32,000 bases of DNA from Desulfotalea psychrophila LSv54. GTDB lineage: Bacteria; Desulfobacterota; Desulfobulbia; Desulfobulbales; Desulfocapsaceae. The translations under genes and the position numbers were made by a program. This document shows, one piece after another, positions 3,582-32,000 of this stretch. Below the pieces are notes generated by a model. It worked only from the letters and a program-made list of their open reading frames with translations. It was not told the DNA's origin and did no database searches. The stretch spans positions 2,250,001 to 2,282,000 of the forward strand of contig NC_006138.1 of NCBI RefSeq assembly GCF_000025945.1. The letters run 5' to 3'. Each line of letters begins with the position of its first letter. Within the stretch, counting starts at the first letter, position 1.

Positions 3582-3591
3582 GGTAATCCCC

Positions 3592-5049: not shown

Positions 5050-5441
5050 GTGATAGTTCTCAACGGCGAAATTTAATGAGAGTGGAAGAGGCAATAAGGA
5101 GAACGAATCTCATCTGCCATGATTTTAACGTCATAAAACACCTGAGATAAGCCTAGCATATCAAAAAGAGTTCTGTCTACTTTCTGTCAATATTATCCTC
5201 TGCTTAGGCTTCTGATACCCCCTTAAATGTGAATCTCTCCTAAGCACCGGCCCCAATGCCTCCTGCTCATCCAGAGGTGGCCGGAGAGAGGACAAAGACC
5301 TTGCTCTTGTTGTCAATTCGGATAAAATTTTCGAGAAGTTGCCTGAGCAATATGGTATTGACACTTTAAGGTCTCATTTTAAAGAAGAGGCCAGCCTTTT
5401 CCCATAAAGAGATTGATTTTTAAAACGGAGCACCGCCCTGC

Positions 5442-7904: not shown

Positions 7905-8155
7905 AAGAAGGTGTCCCCAGTCCCCTTCCCTTTTGCTGAGTTTTCCTTGAAAAAAACGTAAAAAAAAGATGTTAGCAGAGTTAAATTCTAATTGTGTCAA
8001 TGATATTTAAAAGTGTTATGCTTTTAAACTAATAATAAGTCAGGATTTACCCCTTCGGTATGCTTATTTCTTTCAGAGATTTTTTATCTGAAGAAGAGAA
8101 GGCTTCATAGACCTGGCATCAGCGTTTGAGTTATTTATCGACAGGTGAGCAAACA

Positions 8156-8812
8156 ATGTATGAAAAAGAACTTTTTAAAAAAGAGATCTTAAATTTTCTC
8201 AAAGAAAACAGTACAGCCTATCTAAAAAATCAACTTCAACTGAAAGAGCGGGTTTTTTTAACCTCCACGATCGGGGTAACAGAGGGTGGATCTTCTGAAC
8301 CAGATGGGTATGCGGTGAATGAAGATATTTTTCAGAAAAAAACAGCTATCCTTGCCGACAAGATATTCTTCTATGAAGATTTATTTAAGGATTTTATTAC
8401 GGCATATCGGTTATTTCAAGATCTTCCCCAAGAGGTACGCATATCTCTCCAGCCTCTTTTGAACGATAGCTCCCTCAACACATTTATTATGAGCAGTGCC
8501 CAGATGCCGACCATCGAAAACATCTGGAATTATATTAAGTATGAGATAATTGAAGAACAGCATAGAGAGGAGAAAAATTTGCATCTTGAACAGATAAAAA
8601 ATATTTTTGATCTGTTATTTTCTCAATATGTTTGTTATGACTCAAATTATTCTCGCCTTACCACTAAAAAGGGTGAAGTGTTTGACCCGGATATTCATAT
8701 ACGAGTCTTATCTGGGCGGGTGAGTGGCAGGGTTGACCGGGTTTTGTTTCAAGGTTATGAAAACAAAAAAACCGGTCTTATCATAAAAAAAAGCATTGTT
8801 GAGAATATTTAA
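8156..8812 (+). CDS. GrpE-like nucleotide-exchange-factor homologue (divergent)
   Basis: The ORF is open from TTG 8126. ATG 8156 (MYEKELF) is the more likely start. The C-terminus GEVFDPDIHIRV...VDRVLFQGYENKKTGLIIKKSIV matches the GrpE beta-domain pattern (E. coli: LDPNVHQAI...[20 protein letters not shown]). The N-terminal two thirds look helical and charged. An Hsp70-fold gene starts 45 nt downstream. Confidence 0.6.
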   Translation: MYEKELFKKEILNFLKENSTAYLKNQLQLKERVFLTSTIGVTEGGSSEPDGYAVNEDIFQKKTAILADKIFFYEDLFKDFITAYRLFQDLPQEVRISLQPLLNDSSLNTFIMSSAQMPTIENIWNYIKYEIIEEQHREEKNLHLEQIKNIFDLLFSQYVCYDSNYSRLTTKKGEVFDPDIHIRVLSGRVSGRVDRVLFQGYENKKTGLIIKKSIVENI

Positions 8813-8857
8813 TATTTTTGCCTTGGAACTCCGGACAAGAAAACACCTACGAATAAA

Positions 8858-11692
8858 TTGATTGTAGAGAGACCTATTTTGAGTACAGAGAGCATAAAAA
8901 GATTAGCACTTCGTTTTGGTATGCGTGCCCGATTATCGGATAATTTTTCTAAGGTCATAGCAGAAGTTAGGCAAATGTTGGAAAAGAGTCCCTGGCTTAT
9001 AATTAAAAATCAAAAAATTTACTATGATTCCCGAATAAATGGTCTCCTTCCTCTTTTTCATCTGCATAAAAATTTTGTTTGTAGCGCAGATGATAAGGCA
9101 CAGGCCATCAGGGAAAAGCTTAAGAAAAACTATGGGCAACAGCTTGACTGGCAGCTTATTAACAGGGATGAAATTCAACAGGCCATTATAACCAGTAGCA
9201 CAGTCCCCTATAAGAGGGGGAAAAATTACTCTATTTTCATGGGAAATAAGGAGGTGGTCTTTGTTCTCTGTGAAAACAAGGGACAGGTTGTCTGTCTTGG
9301 ACTTAACCATATTCTCAAGGAGAAGATGGTTAATATCATAGAGATTAGAGAGATACTGAGCCTTGAGGAATTTGCATCCTTTGCTGCTCTTATCCCCATT
9401 GTTCGCTTTAGTCGTCTTTCAAGGGAGGGCGTTCAGCCCGAAGAGGTTCTTCTTCACTTTTTAAAGCTTGGCCTTGTACCTGAAAATTTGAAATTAGAAA
9501 AAGAGTATTTTTTTCTGATGGAGTATGTTCTTAAGGGTCTGAAAGAAATAGGCCCAACAAATAGGCATGTGACTCTGCAAGAGGCCATTAAGGCAGGAGA
9601 GAGACTTGTTCTTTCAACAACTCTGGTTGATTCTCTACTCAGAGACGATACTCGCCGGGCAGACATAAAACAGTACCCTAGAAAAATAATTGAAGATGTT
9701 AATGAGGGGCACTGGGAGCTTTGGCCCAGCAAAGGTGCTGAGCTGACTGATATTGAACTAAAGATCCCCCTTATTGCCAGAGACCCTGCCAGTAGTATTA
9801 TAGACGGGGTGGTGGGAATCGATTTTGGCACTAAGAGCACCGTTGTCGTCGCTCAAAAAGAGTCTCTGCACTCCCTGCCTCTGCGAATTGGTACCGGTGA
9901 TCTTGCAAAAAAAATCAGTAAAACGCACTACGAAAACCCTACTATTATTGAGTTTAACGATCTACAGTCTTTTTATAGGGACTATTGTCTGGAAGAGGGG
10001 CGCCCTTTCACCTCTTGGCAGGATGTCACCGTCTCTCATACTGCCCTTAACTCCCTGCAGGAATCTTCCAGTAGCTGTGACTACTACTCTTATCTGCGTG
10101 ACCTGAAGCAGTGGGCAGGACAGAAACAGCAAAAAATAAATATTATTGATAAGAAAAATTATCTTGAAGCCCTGCCCCCATATTTTGAGATAGAACCAGG
10201 GACACTTGATCCTCTGGAAATTTATGCCTACTATCTGGGGCTTTATATCAACAATCAGCATGATGGTATCTATCTTAACTACTATCTCTCCTTTCCCATA
10301 ACCTACGAACTGGCCATACGAAAAAAAATTACCGCAAGTTTTAGGGCGGGTATCCGTAAATCTCTTCCTCCTGCCCTGCTTGAAAATGAGGAAGAGATGA
10401 CAAAGTTTCGGGTAAGAATGGGGGCAAGTGAACCGGCTGCCTATGCCATCACGGCCCTGCACAGTTATAAATTTGAGCCAGAAGGTGAGCAACGGATACT
10501 CTACGGCATCTTTGATTTTGGTGGGGGGACCACCGATTTTGACTTTGGTATGTGGCGGGAGGCAAAGGGCATAAAGGAGAAACGATATGACTACGCAATT
10601 GAGCATTTTGGCGCAGGTGGAGATCGTTTCTTAGGAGGCGAGCATCTCCTGGAATTGTTGGCCTTTGATATATTTAAGAACAACTACGAACAACTGCAAA
10701 AGGATAGTATATCTTTCCCTCGTCCACCCGAATGTTTTGAGTTTGCCGGTTCAGAGCTACTTCTGGCTAACTCCCGGGAGGCTCAGATGAATATGACCCA
10801 TCTTGCCGAAAAGCTCCGCCCCTTTTGGGAACAGCATGAGGGAAATGAGCAACTCTTTCAGGAGTGCATTCATCTCAACCTATGGGACAACCAGGGTAAA
10901 CAGAAGGTTAACTATCAGCTCTTCTGTAACAGAGAGAAGATGGCAGAGATCATAAGAGCCAGAATTGCCCGAGGAGTTGAGAGTTTTTTAGAGGCCATTT
11001 ATCGCGTTTTTTCTCAAAAGACAGAGCAACTACAACTCCGGGAGAAGATTCATATCTTCCTGGCAGGAAATTCCAGTCAATCTCATTGGGTTGAGGAGAT
11101 ATTTAAGGCCTATATTGCAGAAAAAAGTCCGGAGATATTTCCTCAGGATGGAGGAGGCGAGGCAGGTTTTGAGCTCTTTCCACCCTTGGGTACAGAGAGG
11201 AGCTATGCCATCATGGATCTACGGGGTAGTTCCTACGATAAATATTCCATGGAGGCGCCTACAGGTAAGACGGGTGTAGCTTTTGGTCTGGTCCGTAGCA
11301 GAAAGGGATCACGCATCAAGGTTATTGATCATAATTTATCTGATCGGGAGATTAGCTGTCCCTATTATATAGGTAGCGAGAAGAAGGGACGTTTTATTGT
11401 TGATATTGATAGAGAGGATCCCTACGGTAAGTGGTATTGCTTTATTGATGCCAGTGAGGAGGAGTTCGAGTTTTACTATACCGATCAGCTTATGGCCCTG
11501 GCCAGCAGCATCGACATTGCCGATCAGACTATTCGGGTAAAACGATTGATAATAGATAGGGTTGATGAGGATGCATGGGTTTACCTACGCAAAAAAACAC
11601 CGACAACCCTTGAGTATGTGGTGGCTTACGAAGGTGGTATCGAAGAGGAAAAATATCTCGGTGATATTCAATCCGTTGAGCTTACCGTCTAA
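8858..11692 (+). CDS. Atypical Hsp70/actin-fold ATPase (944 aa) with unrecognised N-terminal (~315 aa) and C-terminal (~150 aa) extensions
   Basis: Three nucleotide-binding signatures occur in canonical order: GIDFGTKST (aa 320-328), FDFGGGTTDFDF (aa 552-563), IFLAGNSSQS (aa 734-743). The start is uncertain: TTG 8858 opens the ORF, the first ATG is at 8921, and neither has a good SD. Confidence 0.75.
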   Translation: MIVERPILSTESIKRLALRFGMRARLSDNFSKVIAEVRQMLEKSPWLIIKNQKIYYDSRINGLLPLFHLHKNFVCSADDKAQAIREKLKKNYGQQLDWQLINRDEIQQAIITSSTVPYKRGKNYSIFMGNKEVVFVLCENKGQVVCLGLNHILKEKMVNIIEIREILSLEEFASFAALIPIVRFSRLSREGVQPEEVLLHFLKLGLVPENLKLEKEYFFLMEYVLKGLKEIGPTNRHVTLQEAIKAGERLVLSTTLVDSLLRDDTRRADIKQYPRKIIEDVNEGHWELWPSKGAELTDIELKIPLIARDPASSIIDGVVGIDFGTKSTVVVAQKESLHSLPLRIGTGDLAKKISKTHYENPTIIEFNDLQSFYRDYCLEEGRPFTSWQDVTVSHTALNSLQESSSSCDYYSYLRDLKQWAGQKQQKINIIDKKNYLEALPPYFEIEPGTLDPLEIYAYYLGLYINNQHDGIYLNYYLSFPITYELAIRKKITASFRAGIRKSLPPALLENEEEMTKFRVRMGASEPAAYAITALHSYKFEPEGEQRILYGIFDFGGGTTDFDFGMWREAKGIKEKRYDYAIEHFGAGGDRFLGGEHLLELLAFDIFKNNYEQLQKDSISFPRPPECFEFAGSELLLANSREAQMNMTHLAEKLRPFWEQHEGNEQLFQECIHLNLWDNQGKQKVNYQLFCNREKMAEIIRARIARGVESFLEAIYRVFSQKTEQLQLREKIHIFLAGNSSQSHWVEEIFKAYIAEKSPEIFPQDGGGEAGFELFPPLGTERSYAIMDLRGSSYDKYSMEAPTGKTGVAFGLVRSRKGSRIKVIDHNLSDREISCPYYIGSEKKGRFIVDIDREDPYGKWYCFIDASEEEFEFYYTDQLMALASSIDIADQTIRVKRLIIDRVDEDAWVYLRKKTPTTLEYVVAYEGGIEEEKYLGDIQSVELTV

Positions 11693-12517: not shown

Positions 12518-12593
12518 GCCAACATAGCTCAGTTGGTAGAGCGACGCTCTCGTAAAGCGTAGGCCAGCGGTTCGATCCCGCTTGTTGGCTCCA
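12518..12593 (+). tRNA. tRNA-Thr (anticodon CGU), CCA encoded
   Basis: Hand-folded cloverleaf. Acceptor GCCAACA/TGTTGGC, D arm GCTC-AGTTGGTA-GAGC, anticodon arm ACGCT-CTCGTAA-AGCGT (anticodon CGT), variable AGGCC, T arm AGCGG-TTCGATC-CCGCT, discriminator T, CCA. Total 76 nt. Confidence 0.9.
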
Positions 12594-12601
12594 AGAAATT
12601 C

Positions 12602-12645
12602 AAGGGTTTAGAGGATAATTTCTCTAAACCCTTTTTTGTTTTAAA
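12602..12645 (+). terminator. Rho-independent terminator after tRNA-Thr
   Basis: Perfect 12-bp stem AAGGGTTTAGAG (12602-12613) / CTCTAAACCCTT (12622-12633) with an 8-nt loop, followed by TTTTGTTTT. Confidence 0.8.
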
Positions 12646-12650
12646 AACGG

Positions 12651-12670
12651 TGGGACGGTGATGGGACGGT
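12651..12670. repeat. Direct repeat TGGGACGGT x2 with 11-nt periodicity
   Basis: TGGGACGGT occurs at 12651-12659 and 12662-12670. The repeats sit in the 152-nt gap between the tRNA terminator and the stop of the giant phage gene. Confidence 0.6.
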
Positions 12671-12797
12671 AAATAAGATGACTTTTTGTTCTTTGCCGTG
12701 AAATTATGTGAAGAGAATTTTTTCATTTTATTTTTCCCTTTATCGTTTTTGAAGTGCCCTACTTCTTTTTCACCTGTCAAATTTACCGCACGATCAT

Positions 12798-15700
12798 CTA
12801 CTCATTAGACCGAGACCGTTCAAGCTTGGTTGCCCTCTGGGCTCTTTTCAAAACTAATCTAATCTGACGACCAGGATTTATCGGTCGAATGTCAACCCGA
12901 CCAATACCGTGGGCAAGTTCGTTGTATCGACTTATCTCTTTAAAAAGTTCTGCAGGAGTACCCTTTTGGTACAGGTAGATCTTTTTGATAAGGCTGTTTA
13001 TCTCAGTTCGTCGCTCTTGCATTCGTTTTGCTACTTTCTTTTCGTGCCACTGCTTTTCTCGGATTCCAGAAATGCGGGCAGGGTTAAAAGAAAAAAAGCG
13101 AACCGTCGCATCAAATCCATCGGCTTTTAAAGGTTCTGTACCATAGTAGACGGGACTGTAGGAGCCGGTTGTCACCCCTTCAGCCGCTTCACGAACAGCT
13201 TTTGACATAGAGCCAAAGGCAGTGGGCAACATAGCCTCTGCACCCTTTGAGAGTTCCCCTCTGCCAAGGTGTTTGATGCCTCGGGCTGTATCTGTAAAAA
13301 TAGCCCCGGGAGCGCCGAAGACTTCGGCAAGAGTTCTCGGCATAGGATTGTTTAACTGCAAAGAACCCTTAAGATTCACACCAGCAAGGCCTGCAAGTCC
13401 ATGGCGTAAGAATCTTTCACCACCAAAGGTTCTTTCGGCCCAGGTGTAGAACCTTTCTTCGGGATCATCTCCATCGGCAAACCCAAGGGCCCCGGCAAAG
13501 GCTGCAAGTACGGGAGTTGCAAGTGAAGCACCAGCTCCGGCAAGTACTGCAGGAGATAAAAGCATATACGCGGACTCTTTTATATTCCCTTTAAGACCTA
13601 AGTCTATCATATTAAGTGCATAATTATGAGAGAATTTCTGAAAAGTGTATAAAAGCTTTGCAGGATTGTAGGATCCTCTCGTCCAGGCAGGCATGGTTGC
13701 TTTACCGTAAATCCCATGAGCGCTATCACTTATACTCTTTGCCTTATGCATTGCCTCTTCTCGGGAGAGACTTGTCTGCTCTAATAATTTTTTGTAGGCA
13801 GCATAGATACTTACCGCCCGATTGGTTTTTTCCACAGCGCCAAAAAGTTTCATGGCATACTCGTTAAAAATTTGCCATCGTCGCCCTACTTTGGATTGCA
13901 ATACCGAGGCGTTTTCTTGATTAAACTGGGCTTCATCCCAGCCTCTTGCAGAGATATCTAAAAAGATTTGCCTCTCTTTATCGCTTAATAATCTCTTTTC
14001 CCCGGGCGCTTTTCTGCTATCTCGCAAATATTTACCATAGTCCACGGGCGCTCGGCGGATAACCGACAATGCTTTTGATAACCCGCAACCCGTTTCAGCA
14101 GAGATAATTGCAGGCACAGCCTGAACCATGTTTGTGGCGTTAACGGCGGCTGAACTCACCCTAAAGCCAAGAAACTTAATAACGGCAAGTCCCTTCAAGG
14201 TTCCCATGACTCGATCTACTTGCTCTTCGTTTCGCAGAACTTCCCTCATCCAGGAGATGGCCTCCCCATAAAGATTTTTCTGCCTGGTAGGATTCAAACG
14301 CCTTTTCTCCACAAATTTGCTATAGGCCTCCCAACTTTTATCAGCACTTCTTCCATTCTTGAATTCAGTAAAAGAGATATCGCGACCAGCGAGGGCCTCT
14401 ATCATTTTTCTGGCGGCATTTTTCTTGGCAAATCCTGCTGACAAGCCTCGAGCATATTGGGTACCAGCCAAAAGCATATCCTCTTCAAAACCTTTTACAT
14501 ATTTTGTTGAACGAGCGATACGGCTGGACAAATAACCTCGACCCTTGAAAATTTCTGCAAGATTCATACTGAGAAGTTTATTTATCTCTTGGGAGATTGC
14601 GGGAGTATCGTTGATACCGCCTTTGGTAACCGCCTCTTGAAGTAGAGCGTCAAGGGAAGAGACAAGTTGCATGGCATCAAAAACAGATTCTGGGGTGGAT
14701 TGATCTTTTTTTGCCTCAACGTGGTACCCGCGCTTTTTCAAATTCCGTCCATCTTTCTCCAACGTTTCGACGAAGGGAAGAAATCCTGTTGCAGTATTAA
14801 AAAGTTTTTTGATAAACCAGGAGGCGGATCGCCCCTGCTTAATTTCACCCGTTTCATTGTTGAGGGCATAGGAGTCCACTGCATAAAAATCATACTTCTT
14901 CATAATTGAGGGCTGTCCCTCTTTGGTTGCCCAAAGAATTACGCCACCAGACTGTCTCTGTCTTGGGAAATATGCTCCACGCAGATCACCCATTTCAGCA
15001 ATCAGCTCGGCTAGCGACATCTCTTTACGAATTTCATTATCCCTTTGTCTCTTGAGTTGGTGATGTCGAGTGCCGGCAGCTTGAGCTACCACTTTGTCGC
15101 CGAATTCGGCAACTCTCTTACCATTCTTATAGAGGGCCCAGCGACGTGACTCATCCACCAACGCTACCGTTGGTTCATCAAGGCCAGCCTCATTGGCTCG
15201 GGAAAGTATTTTTCTTAGATCTGCAACCATCCAATCAAAGGCGCGGTTGGTCATCTTGCGAAAGGAACTAATCAGTAATCGAGAATTTTCTGATAATTTC
15301 TGCACTCTTGGTGATTTCTGTTCAAATTCTATTATTGCGGCATTGGCACTTGCCTCCTCTGTAAAAACTTCCAAGAGAACGCCTTTAGGATCCATAACAT
15401 GAAATCGTTCGGATTTTTCCGTGTTATAATTAGGACGAACCTTGTCCTTATATTTACCACGAGCCTGCTGCTCTTTTAGATGTTTTGCGGAGAGTTCATA
15501 CGCCTGCAGCTGGGTATCAGTATACCCTAAAACCGTATCATCGGGAGTCTTCACTAGCCAGGCCATCTGTCTCTTCACCTTGAAAGAGTTACCACTTTGA
15601 TCAACATCGAGCAGATAGTTATTTGCCTGTTCATAGGTAGCGTTATCTTCTTTTTTCGCTTTTTGAAAGGTGGTGACAAAATCCTGTAGAATATCCTCTT

Positions 15701-18700
15701 CCATGGAAAATTTTTCATCCCGGCGTTCCAACTGAGCCATAAACATTCGGCTCGTCGCCCCTGACTTTTTAAAAAACTTCTCAGGAGCCGAAAGTATCTT
15801 TTCCATGAAGTTCATATCAGCAGGAGATGGCTTGTTCTTTATCTGATCAATCTTCTCGAGATAACCTTTGCCGGTCTCAGTCACGCTGTCATGGAAGTAT
15901 TTTTCACCAGGTTCCTGCTCTTTATCTATTTTGGCATGGGAATATCTGATGGCGTCATTATTGTTTTTCTTCTGATTAGTTCGCAATGCGGCCCCGGCCA
16001 TGGCTTTGAGGTCGGCAGCGGTTAATGAATTAACAAATTCAGCACCTAAAAATCTTATGAGAAGTGCTTTTACCCTGGCCAGGAAACGACGTACTAGGCC
16101 AATTTGCGCTGTATCTTCAACAAGATAGGCAATGACTTCCTCGGCATAATGTTCAAGCGGAGTATCCTTAGGTACCCTGTTTATCGCCTTGCGAATAGCT
16201 GCACCCGTTGGGGTGTTGCTGTTTTTACGTCGTAATACGGATCTCTTGAGGGTTTGAAACTCTTTGTCCGCAAGAAGGAGATGGTTAAGGTGCACCCCCA
16301 CCTCATGGTGCAGCACATCCTGTCCTTTACCTTGAGCAATGCTGTCAGCTACCAAGTATGTTTTGTTGGCAACGGTAAAGCCCTGGATAAAGCCATTTTG
16401 GGAATAGAAGATATCAATCTTTGTCTTTAGGGGGGTGGGATTCGTTCGAACAGAATAATACGGTTCACCTTGCAGACCGGCGATAATTTCTTGAGCTTCT
16501 TTTTGAGTGCTAAGAATAGAAAGGGTGCCGGTACGGATCATCCGGGAAATGGTGCTCCGGCCAACGGCTTTGTTGAGTTCTGCTTGAAGGGTAGCGGGGG
16601 TTAACCCACTATTTTGATATTCGGATTCCGCTCTTGTAGACGTTTTTTGGCGTAAATCGCTTTCTCCTTTAATAAGCGCATTTCTGAGGGATTCAACAGA
16701 ACCGTATTTGAGGACATAGTTGCCTTCTGAGTTGGTGAGGGCTTCGATGGTTCCTGAGATATCGAATTGTTGGAGGACGGTTTCGAGTTTTTCACGACCG
16801 AATTTCCTTATAAGTTGGTTAATGGTAGTTTCTTTTATCCCTACTATAGTGCCTCCTTGCACCGAAGCAAGGGAAGAGATGGCCACAACCTCACCACCGT
16901 TGTTCGCTATATAGTGCCGCAGTTCATGAATTGTACCTCCTTGGGTAAGCATATCATCCAGGATAATATATTTGCCACCCTTAACCACTGGCCCCTTAAA
17001 TAGCTTCCTGGCGAGGATACGGCTAGAACCTTTTAACCGCCTCCTTTTGGTCTTGCTTATCTGGTGAATAGAAAGTTGCGCTGAAAGCCCTGCCTTACCA
17101 AACTGATCCGCCATTGCGACGGGAATAAAGTTAACCCCCTCTTCCTCTAGTTCATGCACCGGCACCACTATGGCATCGGGATATTTTGCCGCCAACTCCT
17201 TAATTTTAGCCGGTTTCATTAGGCTCTCTACCAATCGAACCGCCGCGTCAAAATCACCAGCCTTGGCCGCCTTAAAATCGGGGTGACTTCGCAGGGTGCT
17301 CGGATTGGTATGAACCGTGGCTTTTTCAAGGGTTTGTGGCCACGGGGTAACACTTGACCTGGAATAGAGAAGGGTGCCCTTCTCAGTCTCTTTGCTCTTG
17401 AGAGTCTTAAAGAGATCGGTGAAGGCAGGGCCGACCGTCTTCAACTCATCTTCCTTCAGGTAGGGATAGGAATCAGGCTCCTTGCTGTCCCCCTCCCTGA
17501 TTGAGTTGGCCAGCTTTGCCAACAGATTTTCCATATAAACATCGGAGGTTACAATATTGGCCAGATAGTCATTGAGATAGCCCTTGGCTCTGTTCTGTTC
17601 GATGATATAGCTCTCAAAACTCCGGGCACTCATCTCTATCTCAGTACCCCAATATTTTTTCGTCCTCTTCTTATCCAGTTCAGCGGATCTTTCATAAAGC
17701 TTTGTCCCATTAATCTTTGCCATTAGATTATTGAAGGCGGCAACAACCTCCGTCCTGACCTTCTCGCCTCCATTGTTCTTCCCGGCAAAGACTTCGGCTG
17801 TCATATAGTACCCCCCCCTCTCAGCACCGGCATCCCTGGCCCCAAAATGGTTATCCAGGGCGTGCCACCACTCATGGGCCAAACTCCCGGCCCCGCTTTT
17901 TCGGGTCAGGTTAATAACAACCTTGCCGGGCTCATAGTGGGCCATAGCAGCATTTTTGCCGCCAGATCCCCGGGCACCAAAGGCCAGACTAAGTTCACCA
18001 TTAAGAGAGATCGCCCTGGGCGGGATACCAAGCAGGTTGGCCAAATCGTATAAACCATCAAAGGCATTGTTCAGGGCCATCTGTCTTTCACCGCTGGCCT
18101 TAACCCAATTGCCAAACTCCACTCCCTTGAAATTAAAGGCCTCCTGAAACATCTCTGGGCTAACATCCTTACCCTGCCGGTGATTCTCCCCTATCCGTTC
18201 CTCATTTGATTTACGGCGATGGTCAGGGGTATATTTACGAAGCTCCAACTCTTTAACCAACTCGTCGTAGTGTTCCTTTAAATATGTCCGGGCCTCGGCA
18301 GCATTGGGAAAACTCTTGAGGTCGAGATGTGACCCACCAACCTTCTTTCCAATCCAGATATTTTTCGGATCGGTTCGATAGTTATAGACGGTGAACTTAA
18401 CCTTTTTATCCACTGCCTTTTTCTCTCCCAAGGCTTTATAAACCGGCACAAAGTTGGCCAGTGCTTTTTCTTTTGTCTCACCGTCAGCAAGAGTCTTGAA
18501 ATTGGAATATACGTTGGCAGGGGCTTTTTGCTGAATCATCCACATATCAACGTTTTCCCGGCCCTTATAGAGACTCCAATGGATTTTGCTGAAGGTGATA
18601 CCCTTAAGAGATCTTTCATGGCCGTGAATCTCATAAAGCTCTGCCCGGCCAGCTATCTCCTGTGGCATGGCATCCCAAAAATCTTCTGTTATAAGCCCCT

Positions 18701-21700
18701 GGCCTGCCTCTGTTCTGAGAAGTTCAATCGCCAACTGGCGCAAAGACTCAACAGCCTTAACATACTCCTCCATCTTGTATTTCGAGCGACCGCCAGGTTT
18801 AGCAGGCACTTCATCACGGATAGACCGTACCGTGGCCACAATTTTAGGGCTGAACCCATCGGCCAGAAGCTTTTTATAATTGGGTGCGGGGAAGGCTTTG
18901 GAAAGAGGGACGGTGGCAGTATCAAGATGTTCTGCATCGGTCAGACTTCTTGTATAGAGATCTTTCTTGGCCCCGCCGATCTTCTCCCCAAAATCCTCTA
19001 TCTTCTCCTCTTTACCCTTCGGTGTGGATTTTGCAGCAGGCTTTGCAGACTCTTTTTTCTTGGCTTTTGCCTTTGCAGGGGATGTATCTTTACCTCCTTC
19101 AAGGGGAATAGGGTGCAAGCTGCCATCTCTGGCAGAAAGTTCCAGGCCTGATACCATAGAGGTTTTTCCCGAAAGAGAGATATCCCCCACATATTTTTCC
19201 CCTTCACCTTTTTGTAGATAGGCGATGGTTGCATGGGGCTGATAATCAGGAAAAGTTTCTCCTGGGAAAGAGGCCAGTTTACCCGCCTTCTCATTTGCAC
19301 CCACAAGACCGGCACTCTTTATCTCCACCTTCAATACATCGTATTTATCCGTTTCAAAAATAGAGACACGGCCAAGCTCAACGGAGAATGGCCCCAGGGT
19401 AGATAGCTCTTGCAACTCTTTTGTATCGTCGGCTTTAAGCCCATATCTTACCGTGATATGTGGGGCTGTCTCCCGCCCATAGCTAGGGTCTTTGGGATCT
19501 GTATAAAGCTCCTCCTCCGGGATTTTTTCACCGAAGGCAATAATATCCTTTGCTATAGGGCCGGGTAGAGAGGTCTGGATACTGGCGTAGCTGCTTTTAT
19601 GGGTCGGATCCTCCTTCTGTGGTTCCACCTGTGGAACCATTTCTGGGGTAGTAACCCGACCGGGAAACTCCTCTCGTTCATGTTTGGCCGGGTCGATGGT
19701 CGCCATTTCAGGCTTCTCTATAACTTGCTGGAATCCTTGTCGATCATACTTAATTGGATCAACCCTTGCCTGTTCAGGTTTCTCTACAGCCTGGGGAAAC
19801 TCTTTTCGCTCATGTGGGGCAGGTTTGACGTTTACCTTACCATTGGTCTTTACGGCCACTGCCGGGACGGTATCAAATTCATCAACTTCCAGAACCGAAC
19901 CCATGGCATTTCTGCCCTCGATAAGAAGTCTGTTTGTCTCGGGATCTCGGCCCCGGTGGACAAAAACTTCAGGGACACCATTTTGCATAGAGACAAATTG
20001 GTCGCCCTCCTTCAAATCACCGACAACAAGATCCCTTTCATCGGTAAGCTGAAACCCCTCCTGTTCTAACCTGTCAAACTGCACCGATTGAGCGACCATA
20101 GGATTTTTTGCATTGTATTCCTCGGCCACCGTCTTCAGGTATTCCCACCGTTCAAGCTGGGCATGGGTAAGGGGCTTGCCGCTACGAATCTTGCTCAAAA
20201 CCCTGTTAAATGTTTCCTGGCCCAATCTTACTTTTGTGCCATTTTTCTTATTGTACTCACCAACAATCTGCTGCTTAAACCATGGTGGGTAGGAAGATCC
20301 TGCTTCAACATCAGTACCGTCCTGAAGGCTCTTGTTTCTGCTAACATGCCCCCCTTTAACCTCCTGTTCCATCTCGTCAAGGGCGCGAAGATACTGTTGG
20401 TTTTCTATTTCTACCAGGGGATAATCGTTCCCCTCCCTCGTCGCTGAAATCATTTGAGGATTAGAAGCTCTCCCAGGAAAATCTTTCCGCTCCCATCCCT
20501 TCTCTCCACTAAAGGCCACCGCCATATCTACGGCCCTACGCGCATGCTGTTCGGGAGGGTTACGGGCCACACTCTTCTCAGGAGAAAGATGATTCTCTAA
20601 CTCAGCGGAGAAGGCAGCAATTGAATCCTGGCGAGGATGGGACGCAACACCCTCTGTCTGATAACGGGTATCCAGCCCAACGGCTCCCCGGTCAGAAAGA
20701 GAGGTGACATATTCCAATGCCCTCTGCTGTCTCCGGGTAAGACTCTGCCCATTTTTTACCTTACTGATAACAATATCCAGAAGAGGGCCGTTACCGGCAA
20801 GAGTACCGAGCTTTTTGCCGGTTTCCTGCTCATATTTTTTGATATTGTTTTTATCAAGGGCAGCAGAGCGCAGAGATTCAAGCTCCACACTGAATGGTTC
20901 GTTTGGCATCGGGAAGGCTACCTGCTCCCCGGGGGCCACCGGCTCTTTTTCCTCACCGGCAGCCAGGGTCTTACCAATCATGCCACTTGCCCCAATTTTT
21001 TCGGTTACCTCACCGGCGTAGCCGATTCCGGCAAACTTGGCATCAATATCAATGGGTAAACCCTGTGTTACCATCTCCTGGGCATGGTCAAGCCATGCAG
21101 CCGCCGCCGCCCGATCCTTCTCTTCCAGGGCGTTATAAATGGCATTAGCAGCCCCGGCCCTCTCAGCGGGGTCGGTCCCCGGATCTGCCAGGGCATCTTT
21201 TATCTTCTTATTTTGTCTGTCAGAATATTTTTCCGGGAGAACAGCATTAACCGAGCCAAACAGCCCACCACCTACCGCCCCTGCCGCCGCGCTGTTGATA
21301 TACTCCTTGATTGCCTCCTTATCAGTAAGCGAGACAGAGGGGTCATTATATTTTTCATTGAGTTTAGAGAGAAACGCCTGCAAAGTCTCCTGCACAGCTT
21401 CACCGGCCATCGACGCGGGGGTATGAGTAAGCAACCTGCCCTTAACCGTTTTCTGCAAACCGCCAAGAAAATTATCAGCAACTTCCCGGATCGCCTTACT
21501 ACCAGCACCCGTGGCCCCGGTAAGTCGTTTTAACAGAAATGCGCCGGGAGAAAGTAGTTCAGAGGCACCGGAGAGAAGACCGAAACCACCGGCTGAGAAG
21601 GGATTGGCCTTATCAATACCGTGTTTATTGGCCTCCTGGCCATACATTCCACCGCCCTCTAAAGCACCCATACCCATGGTCGTACCAAGGTTAAAACCAA

Positions 21701-22388
21701 TCTTCTTACCACGGGCGATAATGGCCTTTTCCGCCGCCTCCTCTGCAACCTCCCTAACCACCCCATTTTTTACCTGGGCCTCAATCGCCTCACGGATAAT
21801 TTTTTTACCAAGGGCAGGGGCAATTGCAGCACCGGCACCAACACCAGTGAGAGTACCGGCGATTGCCGTGGCCATGGTAGGAAAAAGTCTGCCCAATTGA
21901 CCTGTCACATAATCAAAGGTATCTTCTGCCACCCCGTGATTCTTGCCGATATCAAGAAAATTCTCGGTATCAAGAGGGTTTTCCGCAGCCTCTTCTTCAT
22001 TACGCTGAAACCCTTCATAGCCCCAATTACGAACATCTTTTAAAAATCCATCATTCCCGCCATTAAAAGTTTTGTTGATCGCGTCGGCAGCTAAAGCCGT
22101 GGCACCATAAATAGACCCCTGGGTTTGATCTACCCCCGACAGAAGACCACGCTCGAGGTTTGACCCTTCGGGAGCCTGTTGCTCAAGGGGAAGTTGTTCA
22201 ACAAGTTCAGGTTCCGGGGGAGCTTCCCAATCAGGATCATTAAACGAAAATTTCTCTGCTCTTTCCGGAGAGAGAAGGGTATTAACCTGCTCTTTTTTCC
22301 GGGCTTGCAACTCTTCTGCGCTAGGAACATTAAAATCAAGCTCTGCTTCAAGTAAATCTTCTGGGAATCCGATATTATTATCTGCCAT
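12798..22388 (-). CDS. Giant polyvalent protein (3196 aa): 2H phosphoesterase + zincin + PRTase + second zincin + hydrophobic C-terminal region; probable virion-packaged/injected protein
   Basis: A single uninterrupted 9.6-kb ORF. AAGGA lies 8 nt upstream of the ATG at 22388. Domain motifs are listed as separate features. The KIEDFGEKIGGAKKD linker motif and the multi-enzyme architecture match what I recall of polyvalent proteins of phages/ICEs. Confidence 0.85.
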   Translation of the reverse strand: MADNNIGFPEDLLEAELDFNVPSAEELQARKKEQVNTLLSPERAEKFSFNDPDWEAPPEPELVEQLPLEQQAPEGSNLERGLLSGVDQTQGSIYGATALAADAINKTFNGGNDGFLKDVRNWGYEGFQRNEEEAAENPLDTENFLDIGKNHGVAEDTFDYVTGQLGRLFPTMATAIAGTLTGVGAGAAIAPALGKKIIREAIEAQVKNGVVREVAEEAAEKAIIARGKKIGFNLGTTMGMGALEGGGMYGQEANKHGIDKANPFSAGGFGLLSGASELLSPGAFLLKRLTGATGAGSKAIREVADNFLGGLQKTVKGRLLTHTPASMAGEAVQETLQAFLSKLNEKYNDPSVSLTDKEAIKEYINSAAAGAVGGGLFGSVNAVLPEKYSDRQNKKIKDALADPGTDPAERAGAANAIYNALEEKDRAAAAAWLDHAQEMVTQGLPIDIDAKFAGIGYAGEVTEKIGASGMIGKTLAAGEEKEPVAPGEQVAFPMPNEPFSVELESLRSAALDKNNIKKYEQETGKKLGTLAGNGPLLDIVISKVKNGQSLTRRQQRALEYVTSLSDRGAVGLDTRYQTEGVASHPRQDSIAAFSAELENHLSPEKSVARNPPEQHARRAVDMAVAFSGEKGWERKDFPGRASNPQMISATREGNDYPLVEIENQQYLRALDEMEQEVKGGHVSRNKSLQDGTDVEAGSSYPPWFKQQIVGEYNKKNGTKVRLGQETFNRVLSKIRSGKPLTHAQLERWEYLKTVAEEYNAKNPMVAQSVQFDRLEQEGFQLTDERDLVVGDLKEGDQFVSMQNGVPEVFVHRGRDPETNRLLIEGRNAMGSVLEVDEFDTVPAVAVKTNGKVNVKPAPHERKEFPQAVEKPEQARVDPIKYDRQGFQQVIEKPEMATIDPAKHEREEFPGRVTTPEMVPQVEPQKEDPTHKSSYASIQTSLPGPIAKDIIAFGEKIPEEELYTDPKDPSYGRETAPHITVRYGLKADDTKELQELSTLGPFSVELGRVSIFETDKYDVLKVEIKSAGLVGANEKAGKLASFPGETFPDYQPHATIAYLQKGEGEKYVGDISLSGKTSMVSGLELSARDGSLHPIPLEGGKDTSPAKAKAKKKESAKPAAKSTPKGKEEKIEDFGEKIGGAKKDLYTRSLTDAEHLDTATVPLSKAFPAPNYKKLLADGFSPKIVATVRSIRDEVPAKPGGRSKYKMEEYVKAVESLRQLAIELLRTEAGQGLITEDFWDAMPQEIAGRAELYEIHGHERSLKGITFSKIHWSLYKGRENVDMWMIQQKAPANVYSNFKTLADGETKEKALANFVPVYKALGEKKAVDKKVKFTVYNYRTDPKNIWIGKKVGGSHLDLKSFPNAAEARTYLKEHYDELVKELELRKYTPDHRRKSNEERIGENHRQGKDVSPEMFQEAFNFKGVEFGNWVKASGERQMALNNAFDGLYDLANLLGIPPRAISLNGELSLAFGARGSGGKNAAMAHYEPGKVVINLTRKSGAGSLAHEWWHALDNHFGARDAGAERGGYYMTAEVFAGKNNGGEKVRTEVVAAFNNLMAKINGTKLYERSAELDKKRTKKYWGTEIEMSARSFESYIIEQNRAKGYLNDYLANIVTSDVYMENLLAKLANSIREGDSKEPDSYPYLKEDELKTVGPAFTDLFKTLKSKETEKGTLLYSRSSVTPWPQTLEKATVHTNPSTLRSHPDFKAAKAGDFDAAVRLVESLMKPAKIKELAAKYPDAIVVPVHELEEEGVNFIPVAMADQFGKAGLSAQLSIHQISKTKRRRLKGSSRILARKLFKGPVVKGGKYIILDDMLTQGGTIHELRHYIANNGGEVVAISSLASVQGGTIVGIKETTINQLIRKFGREKLETVLQQFDISGTIEALTNSEGNYVLKYGSVESLRNALIKGESDLRQKTSTRAESEYQNSGLTPATLQAELNKAVGRSTISRMIRTGTLSILSTQKEAQEIIAGLQGEPYYSVRTNPTPLKTKIDIFYSQNGFIQGFTVANKTYLVADSIAQGKGQDVLHHEVGVHLNHLLLADKEFQTLKRSVLRRKNSNTPTGAAIRKAINRVPKDTPLEHYAEEVIAYLVEDTAQIGLVRRFLARVKALLIRFLGAEFVNSLTAADLKAMAGAALRTNQKKNNNDAIRYSHAKIDKEQEPGEKYFHDSVTETGKGYLEKIDQIKNKPSPADMNFMEKILSAPEKFFKKSGATSRMFMAQLERRDEKFSMEEDILQDFVTTFQKAKKEDNATYEQANNYLLDVDQSGNSFKVKRQMAWLVKTPDDTVLGYTDTQLQAYELSAKHLKEQQARGKYKDKVRPNYNTEKSERFHVMDPKGVLLEVFTEEASANAAIIEFEQKSPRVQKLSENSRLLISSFRKMTNRAFDWMVADLRKILSRANEAGLDEPTVALVDESRRWALYKNGKRVAEFGDKVVAQAAGTRHHQLKRQRDNEIRKEMSLAELIAEMGDLRGAYFPRQRQSGGVILWATKEGQPSIMKKYDFYAVDSYALNNETGEIKQGRSASWFIKKLFNTATGFLPFVETLEKDGRNLKKRGYHVEAKKDQSTPESVFDAMQLVSSLDALLQEAVTKGGINDTPAISQEINKLLSMNLAEIFKGRGYLSSRIARSTKYVKGFEEDMLLAGTQYARGLSAGFAKKNAARKMIEALAGRDISFTEFKNGRSADKSWEAYSKFVEKRRLNPTRQKNLYGEAISWMREVLRNEEQVDRVMGTLKGLAVIKFLGFRVSSAAVNATNMVQAVPAIISAETGCGLSKALSVIRRAPVDYGKYLRDSRKAPGEKRLLSDKERQIFLDISARGWDEAQFNQENASVLQSKVGRRWQIFNEYAMKLFGAVEKTNRAVSIYAAYKKLLEQTSLSREEAMHKAKSISDSAHGIYGKATMPAWTRGSYNPAKLLYTFQKFSHNYALNMIDLGLKGNIKESAYMLLSPAVLAGAGASLATPVLAAFAGALGFADGDDPEERFYTWAERTFGGERFLRHGLAGLAGVNLKGSLQLNNPMPRTLAEVFGAPGAIFTDTARGIKHLGRGELSKGAEAMLPTAFGSMSKAVREAAEGVTTGSYSPVYYGTEPLKADGFDATVRFFSFNPARISGIREKQWHEKKVAKRMQERRTEINSLIKKIYLYQKGTPAELFKEISRYNELAHGIGRVDIRPINPGRQIRLVLKRAQRATKLERSRSNE
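16060..16436 (-). other. Zincin-like module 2 of the giant protein (HEVGVH)
   Basis: DVLHHEVGVHLNHLL (HExxH at aa 2028-2032, first His codon at 16307-16305) with downstream EHYAEEVIAYLVED. Only the motif is seen. The fold is not verified. Confidence 0.45.
16780..17290 (-). other. Type-I phosphoribosyltransferase (ComF-like) module of the giant protein
   Basis: PRPP-binding loop signature GGKYIILDDMLTQGGTIHEL (Asp1811-Asp1812, nt 16958-16953), preceded by RRLKGSSRILARKLFKGPV as in ComF/GntX-type PRTases. Confidence 0.7.
17604..18125 (-). other. Zincin-like metallopeptidase module 1 of the giant protein (HEWWH)
   Basis: GVEFGNWV...LAFGARGSGGKNAAMAHYEPGKVVINLTRKSGAGSLAHEWWHALDNH (HExxH at aa 1505-1509, nt 17876-17862), with a downstream acidic helix TEIEMSARSFESYI as a possible third ligand. 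Confidence 0.65.
19100..19570 (-). other. 2H phosphoesterase (LigT/cyclic-nucleotide phosphodiesterase-like) domain of the giant protein
   Basis: Two HxT motifs lie 75 aa apart: APHITVRYGL (His977, codon at 19460-19458) and QPHATIAYL (His1052, codon at 19235-19233). Confidence 0.75.
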
Positions 22389-27469: not shown

Positions 27470-28702
27470 CTATTGTCTCCTTCTGCTAAACTTTGATATC
27501 ATTATACTTAAATCAATTTGCTCTATCTCGAAACACGCACAAGAAACAACTTTTAGAGTCATATATCTACCTACAAGACCTTTGCCTACCTTGACACGAA
27601 CCTCACACATTCCCTCATTTTTCACCTCAAAAGGATAACTATGCCATTGTCCATTTCTATCTGCCATAACCAACAATTCATAATCACCGATACCCTGTAA
27701 TCTCAGATATGCGCTGTTTATAGATTTCTGGTTTTTGTTTCCAAAATCGGTTGTTGCAAAAGCAAAACATTTTTCCTTGCCTGATTTTATGGATTTTTCC
27801 AAATTATACAGTCCGTCAAAACCGGCAATATATGTCTGGTCAGCAACGGCAAGTATACTGCGAGTCTGTAATGAGTTCTCGCTAACAGCCTTACTCCCCA
27901 CCTCACCAACAGCTCCTTGAACATGCATACCACCTTCCGCTCCACCAAGAATAATCTCGGTCTTTCCACGGACGGTTAGTGAGTTGTACTCTTTTTTAAG
28001 CTCATATCTTTTATTGGTAAGATTAAAAACAGAACCACTTGGAAGCCCTAGAAACACTCCTTCAGGAGTAGCAAACAGCAACGACATTTGAGATGTTTCA
28101 AAACCAAAAAGCATAGGGTCTACAAGGTGAGAGCTATTTGCCCATTCAAAAGCAGGGAAATTAAGAATTTTTCGATGGCTCCATGTATCCGGATTTGTAC
28201 CGCCCACGAAATAAACGGCTGTCTCATCTGAAACAAAAAAACCTTCGCCTACAGAGCGAACCATCCGCACCCTAGAACCATAGCGAAGACGATTTTTTAC
28301 CATATCGACCACACCGGGAAGACCATGTTCAGAGAAGATAACTTCTTGCCCTACAGCAAAAAGAATACGCCCTGCAATACTATCTATATGAGTTGCAATA
28401 GGCGCAGGGTAAAAGCTAGATTTAGCATCTGGCCCAGGCCAAGTTTGGGATACCCAAGGGGAACTGGTAAAGACTATTTCTGCAGGAATCTCAGCACGGG
28501 CCACAGAAAAAGACTCGAAAATTAAAATACAATCGGACACGCCTTTAATTACTACAGGAGTATCTACTTTCACCGCACAGTTAAAGCCAAGGCCTATGGT
28601 GGCCTCTGCTAGTGCATGGGTGACAGCTGGCAACACCCGTACCTCTGTGTTAAAACTGAGGCCAAACATTGTAGCAGATTTTATATACTGACTATTTGCC
28701 AT
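27470..28702 (-). CDS. Hypothetical phage structural protein (410 aa)
   Basis: ATG with AAGGG about 10 nt upstream. Beta-rich sequence with no motif recognised. Confidence 0.6.
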   Translation of the reverse strand: MANSQYIKSATMFGLSFNTEVRVLPAVTHALAEATIGLGFNCAVKVDTPVVIKGVSDCILIFESFSVARAEIPAEIVFTSSPWVSQTWPGPDAKSSFYPAPIATHIDSIAGRILFAVGQEVIFSEHGLPGVVDMVKNRLRYGSRVRMVRSVGEGFFVSDETAVYFVGGTNPDTWSHRKILNFPAFEWANSSHLVDPMLFGFETSQMSLLFATPEGVFLGLPSGSVFNLTNKRYELKKEYNSLTVRGKTEIILGGAEGGMHVQGAVGEVGSKAVSENSLQTRSILAVADQTYIAGFDGLYNLEKSIKSGKEKCFAFATTDFGNKNQKSINSAYLRLQGIGDYELLVMADRNGQWHSYPFEVKNEGMCEVRVKVGKGLVGRYMTLKVVSCACFEIEQIDLSIMISKFSRRRQ

Positions 28703-28740
28703 TTTATGTGCCCTTAACGTAAGGCCTACAGCCTGTTTTG

Positions 28741-30573: not shown

Positions 30574-30632
30574 GATATTTACCTTTTAAAATTATCGTAA
30601 AACATATTAATCTATCCCTAACCCCTCGCTAC

Positions 30633-31082
30633 CTATGCTGGTGGATTATTGACATTCAGAGTCACGATAATACTCTGGCCCATATCAACAGTTACATTTT
30701 CAAGCAACAGATCGGCATCGGCCACACCGACAGAACCATCCCATCGAACAGCAACATCGGACGCATCGGTGATTTCGTCTTTATCGTAAAAACGGAACCA
30801 AGTTGCCTCACCCGTAGCAACCCAAGTGCCCTTCCATTCTTCTCCTTCGGCAGGGCTAATTACGCCATCTACCGGAGAACCAAAATTGAGACCATTTGTC
30901 ACCTCCCCAGGAGTATGCGCCAAACCATCTACTGTGATAATTCCGAGCAGCGTTCCCGCCTCTGCATCATCTGCTGAGGCAGGTTGCGTTCCGCTGTAGA
31001 TATGAAGAACGCCACCGGCAAACCGAGCGGCAAAGGCAATAAGCTCAGCCAAGATCATTCCTTTTGCTTTTTTCACACTCAT
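30633..31082 (-). CDS. Hypothetical small phage protein (149 aa), paralogue of the C-terminal domain of the 610-aa protein
   Basis: ATG with GAGGG about 10 nt upstream. GGVLHIY...DAEAGTLLGIITVDGLAH...NGL...WKGTW...WFRFYD. Confidence 0.65.
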   Translation of the reverse strand: MSVKKAKGMILAELIAFAARFAGGVLHIYSGTQPASADDAEAGTLLGIITVDGLAHTPGEVTNGLNFGSPVDGVISPAEGEEWKGTWVATGEATWFRFYDKDEITDASDVAVRWDGSVGVADADLLLENVTVDMGQSIIVTLNVNNPPA

Positions 31083-31100
31083 TATATAATCCCTCTGTTG

Positions 31101-31502
31101 TTACTGGCCTTCATTAAGGGCCAAAATCCCGTTTTCAAAACCGTTACAGTAGAAAACGTTGCTCCCCAGGAGCGTATAGGAAATTCGTGCGCCTTGTGTT
31201 AAAGCAGAACGAATACCCTGTTTAGTTATCCCGTTAGCATTTGTTTGTATGAAAAATAAAGCCGTATCTGCTTCTCTATCTTCTGCAATAAAAAAATTAT
31301 CCCCCAAGGGAAACATCGAATGATAAGCACCCTCAGCCAACTTCTTTACATCTAGGGCAGAAACAATAGCCCCGGTATGGTCTATCTCAATATCACGGCA
31401 ATCTTCTAGTGTTGATTGCCCTTTCGCAATGACTAATCTTGCCGGATCATCGACGTTATTCAGGCCTAAACAATTATTGTATAAAACGATATCATGGGCC
31501 AT
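31101..31502 (-). CDS. Hypothetical phage protein (133 aa)
   Basis: ATG with GGGGAAAG upstream, 18 nt after the upstream stop. No motif recognised. Confidence 0.5.
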   Translation of the reverse strand: MAHDIVLYNNCLGLNNVDDPARLVIAKGQSTLEDCRDIEIDHTGAIVSALDVKKLAEGAYHSMFPLGDNFFIAEDREADTALFFIQTNANGITKQGIRSALTQGARISYTLLGSNVFYCNGFENGILALNEGQ

Positions 31503-31520
31503 ATTCTTTCCCCATAACGA

Positions 31521-32000
31521 TTACCATAAGTGATTACGATGTGGGCGATTCTGGCTATTAAGTCTCTGCCTGTTGGCCCTGAGCATATCGCCAAAATAAT
31601 CCTCAAATTTTTCCAGATGAACTGCGGCAACTTGTGGTGCATAGGAATCCAAATCAACATCGGAAAGAGCTAAATAAACAGCCCAATGATGCAACCTGCT
31701 ATGGTGTCTTTCAGAAATAACCGGCTCGCTATCCACATCATTCAGGGACAGCTTTTCGCTTGCAAGTGGCGTTCTGTACCCCTCCAATTCGATAATACCG
31801 CCACCAAAGGGGGGGGGCGGTAGAATAAATATTTTCTTATCGTCTGTGATAAGGAAAGCCGGGTCGCCCACAGCTTGAAGGTCGGGTAAGTTGTTGCGGA
31901 AAGAGAGGTCGCCACGGGAACGAATTTCCAAGTCAGTTCGTTGCCCGGAAGAATTAAGGAAATGGGCGATATCAATTTTATAAAGACTTCCGCTAATGTC
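31521..32000 (-). CDS. Hypothetical phage protein, 3' part (open frame continues past the window end; possibly a head-tail adaptor-type protein, a weak guess)
   Basis: The track starts it at TTG 31931, but I translated the same frame back to base 32000 without meeting a stop (DISGSLYKIDIAHFLNSSGQRTDLEIRSRG...). It contains a C9 homopolymer encoding PPPP. Confidence 0.55.
   Translation of the reverse strand, partial: DISGSLYKIDIAHFLNSSGQRTDLEIRSRGDLSFRNNLPDLQAVGDPAFLITDDKKIFILPPPPFGGGIIELEGYRTPLASEKLSLNDVDSEPVISERHHSRLHHWAVYLALSDVDLDSYAPQVAAVHLEKFEDYFGDMLRANRQRLNSQNRPHRNHLW
31809..31817. repeat. G9/C9 homopolymer tract inside a coding region
   Basis: Nine consecutive G on the + strand (ccaccaaaGGGGGGGGGcgg), which is C9 on the coding strand, encoding the PPPP of ..ILPPPPFGGG.. 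Confidence 0.9.

Follow-up and report, generated by a model that had tools for sequence, protein, structure and literature searches.

The 32,000-nucleotide stretch of the Desulfotalea psychrophila LSv54 genome analyzed here (contig NC_006138.1, positions 2,250,001 to 2,282,000; hereafter the window, in whose own coordinates all positions are given) carries on its reverse strand one uninterrupted open reading frame (ORF) of 3196 amino acids (aa), within which a domain of about 240 residues has the sequence motifs and the predicted fold of a type I phosphoribosyltransferase (PRTase). The product of this ORF is a polyvalent protein, an identity that follows from the occurrence of LPD5, LPD1, and a C-terminal PLxRFG domain in one chain, LPD standing for "large polyvalent protein-associated domain"; several unrelated enzymatic and LPD domains are united in the polypeptide, and its gene adjoins tail and virion genes. 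A sequence-only reading of this DNA had proposed a phosphoribosyltransferase module of the ComF kind at 16780-17290, inside a phage structural or injected protein. That interval (aa 1700-1870) falls inside a real domain but cuts off both of its ends, the domain extending over aa 1675-1917. The ORF, the domain, and the elements of the domain that bear on its identity are as follows.

12798..22388, minus strand: polyvalent-protein ORF of 3196 aa, uninterrupted, with LPD5, LPD1, 2H, PRTase, and PLxRFG modules.
16638..17366, minus strand: PRTase domain of a mobile-element clade (aa 1675-1917), from the envelope of the family hidden Markov model (HMM), PHROG 22413, an AlphaFold2 (AF2) model, and Foldseek.
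17184..17291, minus strand: N-terminal helical part (aa 1700-1735) with an A-K-x-G-D motif, helical in the AF2 model.
17121..17171, minus strand: core strand 1 (AIVVPV) and the loop that follows, with E1748, G1751, N1753, and P1756; candidate pyrophosphate (PPi) loop.
16986..17069, minus strand: flexible-loop region (aa 1774-1801) with the basic stretch KTKRRRLKGSSRILARK and residues R1790, R1794, F1797, and G1799.
16932..16973, minus strand: loop for phosphoribosyl pyrophosphate (PRPP), KYIILDDMLTQGGT (aa 1806-1819), with the acidic dyad D1811/D1812 and the 5'-phosphate loop T1815-T1819.
16653..16811, minus strand: C-terminal helical part (aa 1860-1912) with an L-T-x-x-E motif, corresponding to helices 184-224 of the model.

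We identify aa 1675-1917, with little room for doubt, as a complete type I PRTase domain of a clade specific to phages and conjugative elements. The 242-position profile of PHROG 22413, which represents a phage family without an assigned function, covers aa 1684-1912 with its positions 8-237 (E = 5e-40). Ten relatives, mostly of 230-290 aa, were obtained from a word-indexed search, and the family profile built from them and searched exhaustively against 1.84 billion cluster representatives matched 2615 of these at E <= 1e-3, 1895 at E <= 1e-10, and 1047 at E <= 1e-30; the window protein scores 348.6 bits against this profile over aa 1675-1917. The PHROG match and the 1047 relatives at E <= 1e-30 together rule out a chance motif in a region that is not a domain. 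By tblastn, the module gave three distant matches only among phage genomes, and a search of genome contigs with the single module sequence gave no match; the same kind of search with a second alignment led to 7 loci, all of them in metagenome-assembled genomes.

The structural comparison leads to the same family. The AF2 model of the domain, computed from the alignment of the ten relatives (predicted local distance difference test, pLDDT, 83.8; predicted TM-score, pTM, 0.81), has the alpha/beta core of type I PRTases with a parallel sheet and a hood, to which the N-terminal helical part probably belongs. Foldseek searches of the PDB with this model gave 36 matches at E <= 1e-3, all of which are type I PRTases or regulatory derivatives of them, spanning APRT, OPRT, XPRT, HGPRT, PurR, ShosT, and ComF, with a Foldseek probability of 1.00 in 34 cases and 0.99 in the remaining two; the top superposition was that on Helicobacter pylori ComFC (7p0h_A; TMq 0.48, root-mean-square deviation 3.7 Å, 157 columns). 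From the viral structure library BFVD, PRTases and PRPP synthetases exclusively were recovered. In the profile search of PDB sequences, the APRTs lead (E = 8.6e-7), with ShosT and ComF lower in the list, and every alignment covers the PRPP loop, the next helix, and the next strand. The assignment to type I PRTases made from the letters alone is therefore borne out by the modeled fold and by PDB matches that are, wherever significant, PRTases.

All of the sequence elements expected of a PRPP site are present, namely the acidic dyad, the TQGGT loop, the loop after strand 1, and an Arg-bearing flexible loop. The segment YIILDDMLTQGGT (aa 1807-1819) consists of a hydrophobic strand and two acidic residues, followed four residues on by G-G/x-T, and the 5'-phosphate loop reads TQGGT. 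The motif KYIILDDMLTQGGT had been recognized correctly in the sequence-only reading, with its aspartates rightly numbered as D1811 and D1812, and so had the basic, R-rich segment ahead of it (KTKRRRLKGSSRILARK, aa 1779-1795). For conservation, 161 domain copies from 155 retrieved proteins were aligned to the family HMM and residues were counted among the non-gap sequences. The acidic loop proved to be conserved among homologues, and a PRTase fold is predicted, so that neither of the outcomes named beforehand as fatal to the idea was encountered: D1811 is Asp in 153 and D1812 in 155 of 156 sequences, G1817 is kept in 156/156, and T1819 in 132/156 (Ser in another 19). The loop aligns with the PRPP loops of APRT, ComF, and ShosT, and its spacing, DD-x4-G-G-T, is that of ComFC 157-DDIITTGTT-165, so that T1819 corresponds to ComFC T165, the mutation of which abolishes nucleotide binding (PMC9005727).

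The loop after strand 1 (E-x2-G-x-N-x2-P) is also well kept (E1748 in 151, N1753 in 157, and P1756 in 155 of 157 sequences) and, matching by position the PPi loop of ComFC (PMC9005727), is a candidate PPi loop. The series R/H1782...R1790...F1797-x-G stands at the position expected of the flexible loop that connects strands 2 and 3, to which it is assigned by position only; R1790 and F1797 are each found in 153/157 and G1799 in 157/157, and R1794 is also conserved. Residues 1782-1784 (window 17037-17045) read RRR, whereas the family consensus is [RH]-T-G, with Thr at the middle position in 81% and Arg or His at the first in 94% of the relatives. The nearest relatives, P0002 and P0004, likewise depart from this consensus, and the RRR sequence may mark a subclade with an altered flexible loop. 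The two helical parts carry family-specific motifs, A1708, K1709, G1711, and D1712 (A-K-x-G-D; 81-96% conserved) and L1884, T1885, and E1888 (L-T-x-x-E; 87-96%).

PRTases of this type had been described as a distinct group by Iyer, Burroughs, Anand, de Souza & Aravind (2017, J Bacteriol 199:e00245-17; PMC5512222), who found them mostly in polyvalent proteins of phages and prophages, with fusions to MuF as the simplest form and with solo genes as well, and who noted the DD motif and an arginine, located in the loop that follows strand 2, that ComFC has as well. The window domain has the DD dyad, R1790, an end-to-end match including both helical parts, and a polyvalent context. The clade of Iyer et al., equivalent here to PHROG 22413, occurs mainly in elements of Proteobacteria type; its features are seen in the present protein too, and we find no essential difference, the combination of modules and the RRR loop being the window protein's own. 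The location inside a giant phage protein, called unexpected in the sequence-only reading, had consequently been on record since 2017 (PMC5512222), and the premise that such PRTases are normally small cellular proteins does not hold for this family, about half of its best 150 representatives being 1000-7000 aa long. Among the 155 retrieved members, 79 have at least 1000 aa and 49 at least 2000 aa, the largest reaching 7022 aa. The arrangement is common, and the window protein adds one further member to it.

The company in which the PRTase is found varies widely. It is combined with ddrB-ParB, an SNF2 helicase, and a methylase (P0021), with LPD3 and ART-PolyVal (P0013), with MuF (P0060), with RadC (P0071 and P0069), with topoisomerase IB (P0030), and with LPD38 (L015). 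In Moraxella phage Mcat8, a MuF-PRTase fusion is encoded directly after the portal gene, and a solo PRTase homologue adjoins genes for GGDEF plus ddrB-ParB and for RadC. The relatives P0011 (637 aa) and P0014 (817 aa) each contain two stretches matching the family profile and appear to carry two tandem PRTase copies, which would fit dimerization; type I PRTases are usually dimeric. A 4534-aa ORF on the IMG/VR contig L014 has LPD5, zincin-like, LPD1, and PRTase modules in common with the window protein as a block at 37-52% identity (37% for the LPD1-PRTase block). Of 154 relatives with a PRTase, just 1 to 11 share any one of the window protein's other modules, and the PRTase is accordingly a freely shuffled module.

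In the giant protein itself, an N-terminal region is followed, from the N- to the C-terminus, by a 2H phosphoesterase, LPD5, a zincin-like region with the sequence HEWWH, LPD1, the PRTase, modules of unknown nature, and PLxRFG. The features outside the PRTase, together with those of the genes around it, are located as follows.

19203-19493, minus strand: 2H phosphoesterase-like module (aa 966-1062) with two HxT motifs.
18138..18554, minus strand: LPD5 domain (aa 1279-1417; Pfam PF18799, E = 6.7e-43).
17574-18197, minus strand: CLCA_X-like region (aa 1398-1605; 146 bits, under the subfamily cutoff of 260).
17391..17678, minus strand: LPD1 domain (aa 1571-1666; Pfam PF18796, E = 1.4e-15), directly N-terminal of the PRTase.
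16089-16637, minus strand: module following the PRTase (aa 1918-2100), with an HHEVGVH motif at 16290-16310.
12828..14504, minus strand: PLxRFG ("tail-700") C-terminal domain (aa 2629-3187; NCBIfam NF032893, 107.8 bits, cutoff 100).
31521..31931, minus strand: upstream gene for an SU10-type adaptor (Pfam PF24175, 41.2 bits, cutoff 27).
12518-12593, plus strand: tRNA-Thr (CGU), located 205 bp past the giant gene's stop codon.
12518-12637, plus strand: the same tRNA-Thr together with the terminator-like hairpin that follows it (aagggtttagag...ctctaaaccctttttt).

The 2H module bears the motifs HITVRYG at aa 977 and HATIAY at aa 1052 and is matched weakly by Pfam 2_5_RNA_ligase2 (25.3 bits, cutoff 27) and Acb1 (E = 0.014), as well as by PHROG 755, "RNA ligase" (E = 1.9e-5); its sole match among PDB sequences is the anti-CBASS nuclease Acb1 (7t26; E = 0.13), and its AF2 model from the single sequence was unusable (pLDDT 34.5). 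Such 2H domains have been listed before in phage polyvalent proteins (Iyer et al. 2017; PMC5512222). An action on immune nucleotide signals, one of the roles that had been considered for the PRTase, fits this neighboring, Acb1-like module better, because of its two HxT motifs and the weak Acb1 and 2_5_RNA_ligase2 matches, and the module is a candidate degrader of cyclic-nucleotide signals within the same predicted injected protein. The HExxH motif HEWWH, at aa 1505 (window 17862-17876), lies inside the CLCA_X-like region, which may be a metallopeptidase for the self-processing of the polyvalent protein, as proposed for such proteins by Iyer et al. (2017; PMC5512222). The module at aa 1918-2100 has no Pfam match, and 11 further proteins with a PRTase contain it as well, at positions that vary (upstream, downstream, or overlapping), a variability from which we take it to be an independent shuffled module. 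For the PLxRFG C-terminus, tblastn against phages returned just two weak matches, both in Pseudomonas phages. A hydropathy scan of the whole protein picked out two hydrophobic, Gly/Ala-rich segments (aa 175-193 and aa 2943-2971), which could enter the membrane at ejection, and there is one cysteine among all 3196 residues. No match to the giant gene was obtained by megablast among 50,697 phage genomes; as judged by these searches, the combination of 2H, LPD5, zincin-like, LPD1, PRTase, and PLxRFG modules in 3196 aa is without a close match among sequenced phages.

The genes at 27470-31931, upstream of the giant gene and on its strand, match virion structural PHROGs, which, with the SU10-type adaptor among them, points to a podovirus-like virion and tail module of which the giant gene is the last; the placement of the PRTase as an internal module of a giant phage protein, as first read from the letters, agrees with this. 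To the left of the tRNA-Thr lie ordinary bacterial genes, for an RlpA-like protein, a PIF1/HRDC helicase, multihaem cytochromes, and an ABC transporter, on which account the phage region is most likely a prophage. The tRNA-Thr region may be its attachment site or boundary, with the other end beyond the window. An 83-aa ORF at 12529-12780 (minus strand) overlaps the tRNA-Thr and is probably spurious.

Among the bacterial genes, two adjacent ORFs of 228 aa and 944 aa (8126-11692, plus strand) lie between the gene for the RlpA-like protein and that for the helicase, a PIF1/HRDC/HTH_40 protein that matches the PADLOC candidates PDC-S68, PDC-M16A, and DpdF. The two ORFs themselves have no match in Pfam, PHROGs, or PADLOC, and the GC content falls to 36% at 8001-9000 as against about 45% elsewhere; the region may form a small island, or its two ORFs may be a defence pair not known so far. 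Farther to the left (1926-5094, minus strand), two large genes encode multihaem c-type cytochromes, one of them fused to a cytochrome b561-like membrane domain, which together with the overall GC content of 45% hints at a metal-respiring host.

Taken as a whole, the locus is best explained, we consider with good confidence, as encoding the PRTase module of a presumably virion-delivered polyvalent protein. The relation of this module to the well-known PRTase families bears directly on what it might do. Its attribution to the ComF/GntX kind in the sequence-only reading can be kept as a resemblance and not as a membership. If the module were a captured true ComF/GntX orthologue, it would hand over incoming single-stranded DNA as in competence, and in favor of this one may cite the top superposition on ComFC, the arginine noted by Iyer et al., and the basic segment that E. 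coli GntX also has ahead of its PRPP strand (SARLRKRNLKNAF). ComFC (7P0H; PMC9005727) further shares the type I PRT core, the DD-x4-G-x-T spacing, a long flexible loop with basic residues, and a link to DNA entering the cell, which is what we propose for the window module. However, ComFC has an N-terminal 4-Cys zinc finger that is needed in vivo (Damke et al. 2022; PMC9005727), whereas no cysteine occurs in aa 1670-1920, and so no such finger can be formed; helical N- and C-terminal extensions are found here instead, and the cellular ComFC, ComF, and GntX proteins have about 200 aa. The scores of 19.3 bits for the ComF model TIGR00201 (cutoff 233.55) and 17.9 for the GntX model NF008616 (cutoff 304) are far under the cutoffs and both below those of the module against APRT models, and hhalign, which aligned 39 columns to E. 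coli GntX (YhgH; probability 91%) and 37 columns to E. coli Apt (87%), covered the PRPP loop alone in either case and does not discriminate between ComF-like and APRT-like. In addition, the nearest relatives are all mobile-element proteins, and phages inject double-stranded DNA. Lacking the zinc finger and scoring far under the ComF and GntX cutoffs, the module is rejected as a true ComF orthologue, which we consider highly improbable; it may work like ComFC, but from outside the ComF/GntX family. An ordinary salvage enzyme of the APRT or OPRT type, the product of an auxiliary metabolic gene, would account for the best matches among named families, which are APRT/OPRT models and APRT structures; Thermus thermophilus APRT (6FSP/5ZGO) and E. 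coli Apt have the same PRPP-loop spacing (VDDvltTGGT) and the same following helix and strand. The match is confined, however, to about 40 residues around the PRPP loop, the hood and base-binding parts are unrelated, and all NCBIfam equivalog cutoffs are missed, the best score being 27.9 bits against 188 (NF009211) and the others 16-25 against 107-243. With these low scores, and with invariant residues in the N- and C-terminal helical parts that salvage enzymes lack, this explanation is effectively refuted, and it retains, even when combined with that of a chance motif, an almost negligible probability.

As for the role itself, described as "enigmatic" by Iyer et al. (PMC5512222), who proposed nucleotide production or sensing during DNA entry, we tentatively favor a nucleotide-handling enzyme coupled to DNA entry, while regarding this as a possibility that falls well short of probable. 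From the position of the gene and the general model of polyvalent proteins, the giant protein would be carried inside the capsid and pass into the cell together with the ejected DNA; within the first minutes of infection, on or close to the incoming DNA, the ligand bound by the PRTase module would be Mg-PRPP or a 5'-phosphoribosyl nucleotide, which the module would most likely also turn over. Such an action would resemble that of ComFC, whose PRPP site serves DNA translocation. We favor DNA entry because the frequent partners of the PRTase (ParB-type nucleases, SNF2-methylases, RadC, topoisomerase IB, and MuF) act on DNA or in restriction, and because the PRPP site of ComFC is required for DNA translocation, as evident from its T165A mutant (PMC9005727). 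Several points weigh against so specific an assignment, or against the domain reading beneath it. The Foldseek TM-scores are modest (0.3-0.5), which may be attributed to the extra helices at both ends of the domain; the gathering score of Pfam PF00156 (Pribosyltran), 26.3, is narrowly missed in the PRPP-loop region of the window protein (19.4 bits with the whole protein, 24.1 with the excised segment), the relatives P0011 (34.9) and P0014 (29.8) exceeding it; the conservation figures derive from the 150 best-scoring relatives, a sample that favors motif-bearing sequences; and the RRR departure might alter loop closure. Searches of the literature brought up no experiment on whether this protein, or any other of its clade, binds PRPP, acts as a catalyst, or is packaged into virions. 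A conserved PRPP site is, moreover, compatible with catalysis or with mere binding, since PurR keeps the site and only senses. Accordingly, the module could be a non-catalytic sensor or sponge for PRPP or a nucleotide, like PurR or PyrR, that regulates a neighboring module or sequesters the nucleotide. The significant fold matches include PurR structures in complex with cPRPP and ppGpp, the ComFC domain binds PRPP, nucleoside monophosphates, and nucleoside diphosphates, with its authors undecided between catalysis and regulation (PMC9005727), and Iyer et al. (PMC5512222) also admit sensing. Nevertheless, more than 150 diverged relatives show hardly any variation in the dyad, in the loop that follows strand 1, or in the Arg of the flexible loop, as a working active site predicts, and a single copy per injected protein would make a poor stoichiometric sponge, so that this alternative seems to us rather unlikely. 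We give still less credence to a PRPP-depleting weapon, comparable to ShosT or to the effector of retron Eco11, that would shut down nucleotide synthesis in the host or keep out rival elements. In the retron system (type III-A3, Eco11), the PRTase effector, once activated, depletes PRPP (PMC12746101), the toxicity of ShosT depends on PRPP binding (PMC12961424), and Iyer et al. (PMC5512222) suggest rival elements as the target. ShosT (8ZVB/9W2Q) is the sole PADLOC match of the module and occurs in the PDB sequence and fold lists as well, and these PRTases are, like the present one, non-canonical and engaged in phage-host conflict, with weak matches in the PRPP loop. Against this, the ShosT matches are limited to that loop (about 55 residues, 19-21 bits), and no match to a DprA-like ShosA partner was found among the scanned ORFs of the window; ShosT and the retron PRTase are host-encoded abortive-infection toxins that act with partners (ShosA, and a reverse transcriptase plus noncoding RNA, respectively), whereas the window PRTase is phage-encoded. 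Furthermore, the few injected molecules would need to outrun PRPP synthesis, and the phage, which appears temperate, would starve its own replication too. Doubtful to a similar degree is that the clade has an activity unseen in any PRTase, exerted from an injected protein. On this reading, the near-invariance of K1709, D1712, T1885, and E1888 in the predicted hood suggests one conserved second substrate throughout the clade. In one version, it would be a factor analogous to ComFC at the cytoplasmic mouth of the DNA-ejection channel, coupling the binding of PRPP or a nucleotide to DNA entry or end protection; in the other, an enzyme of counter-defence that forestalls abortive-infection effectors dependent on PRPP, such as the retron III-A3 PRTase and ShosT, or that makes an unusual nucleotide.

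The example in the window is one more case in a clade of more than 1000 diverged representatives that was catalogued in 2017, a clade that is large, well conserved, enzyme-like, and carried by phages and plasmids at DNA entry. For experimental work, cultured examples such as the MuF-PRTase of Moraxella phage Mcat8 are more tractable than the module of the window prophage. PRPP-binding PRTase domains drive both natural competence, in the case of ComFC, and abortive-infection defence, in those of ShosT and retron Eco11; in view of these roles, the PRTase on the phage side is a reasonable candidate for a function in DNA entry or in counter-defence.

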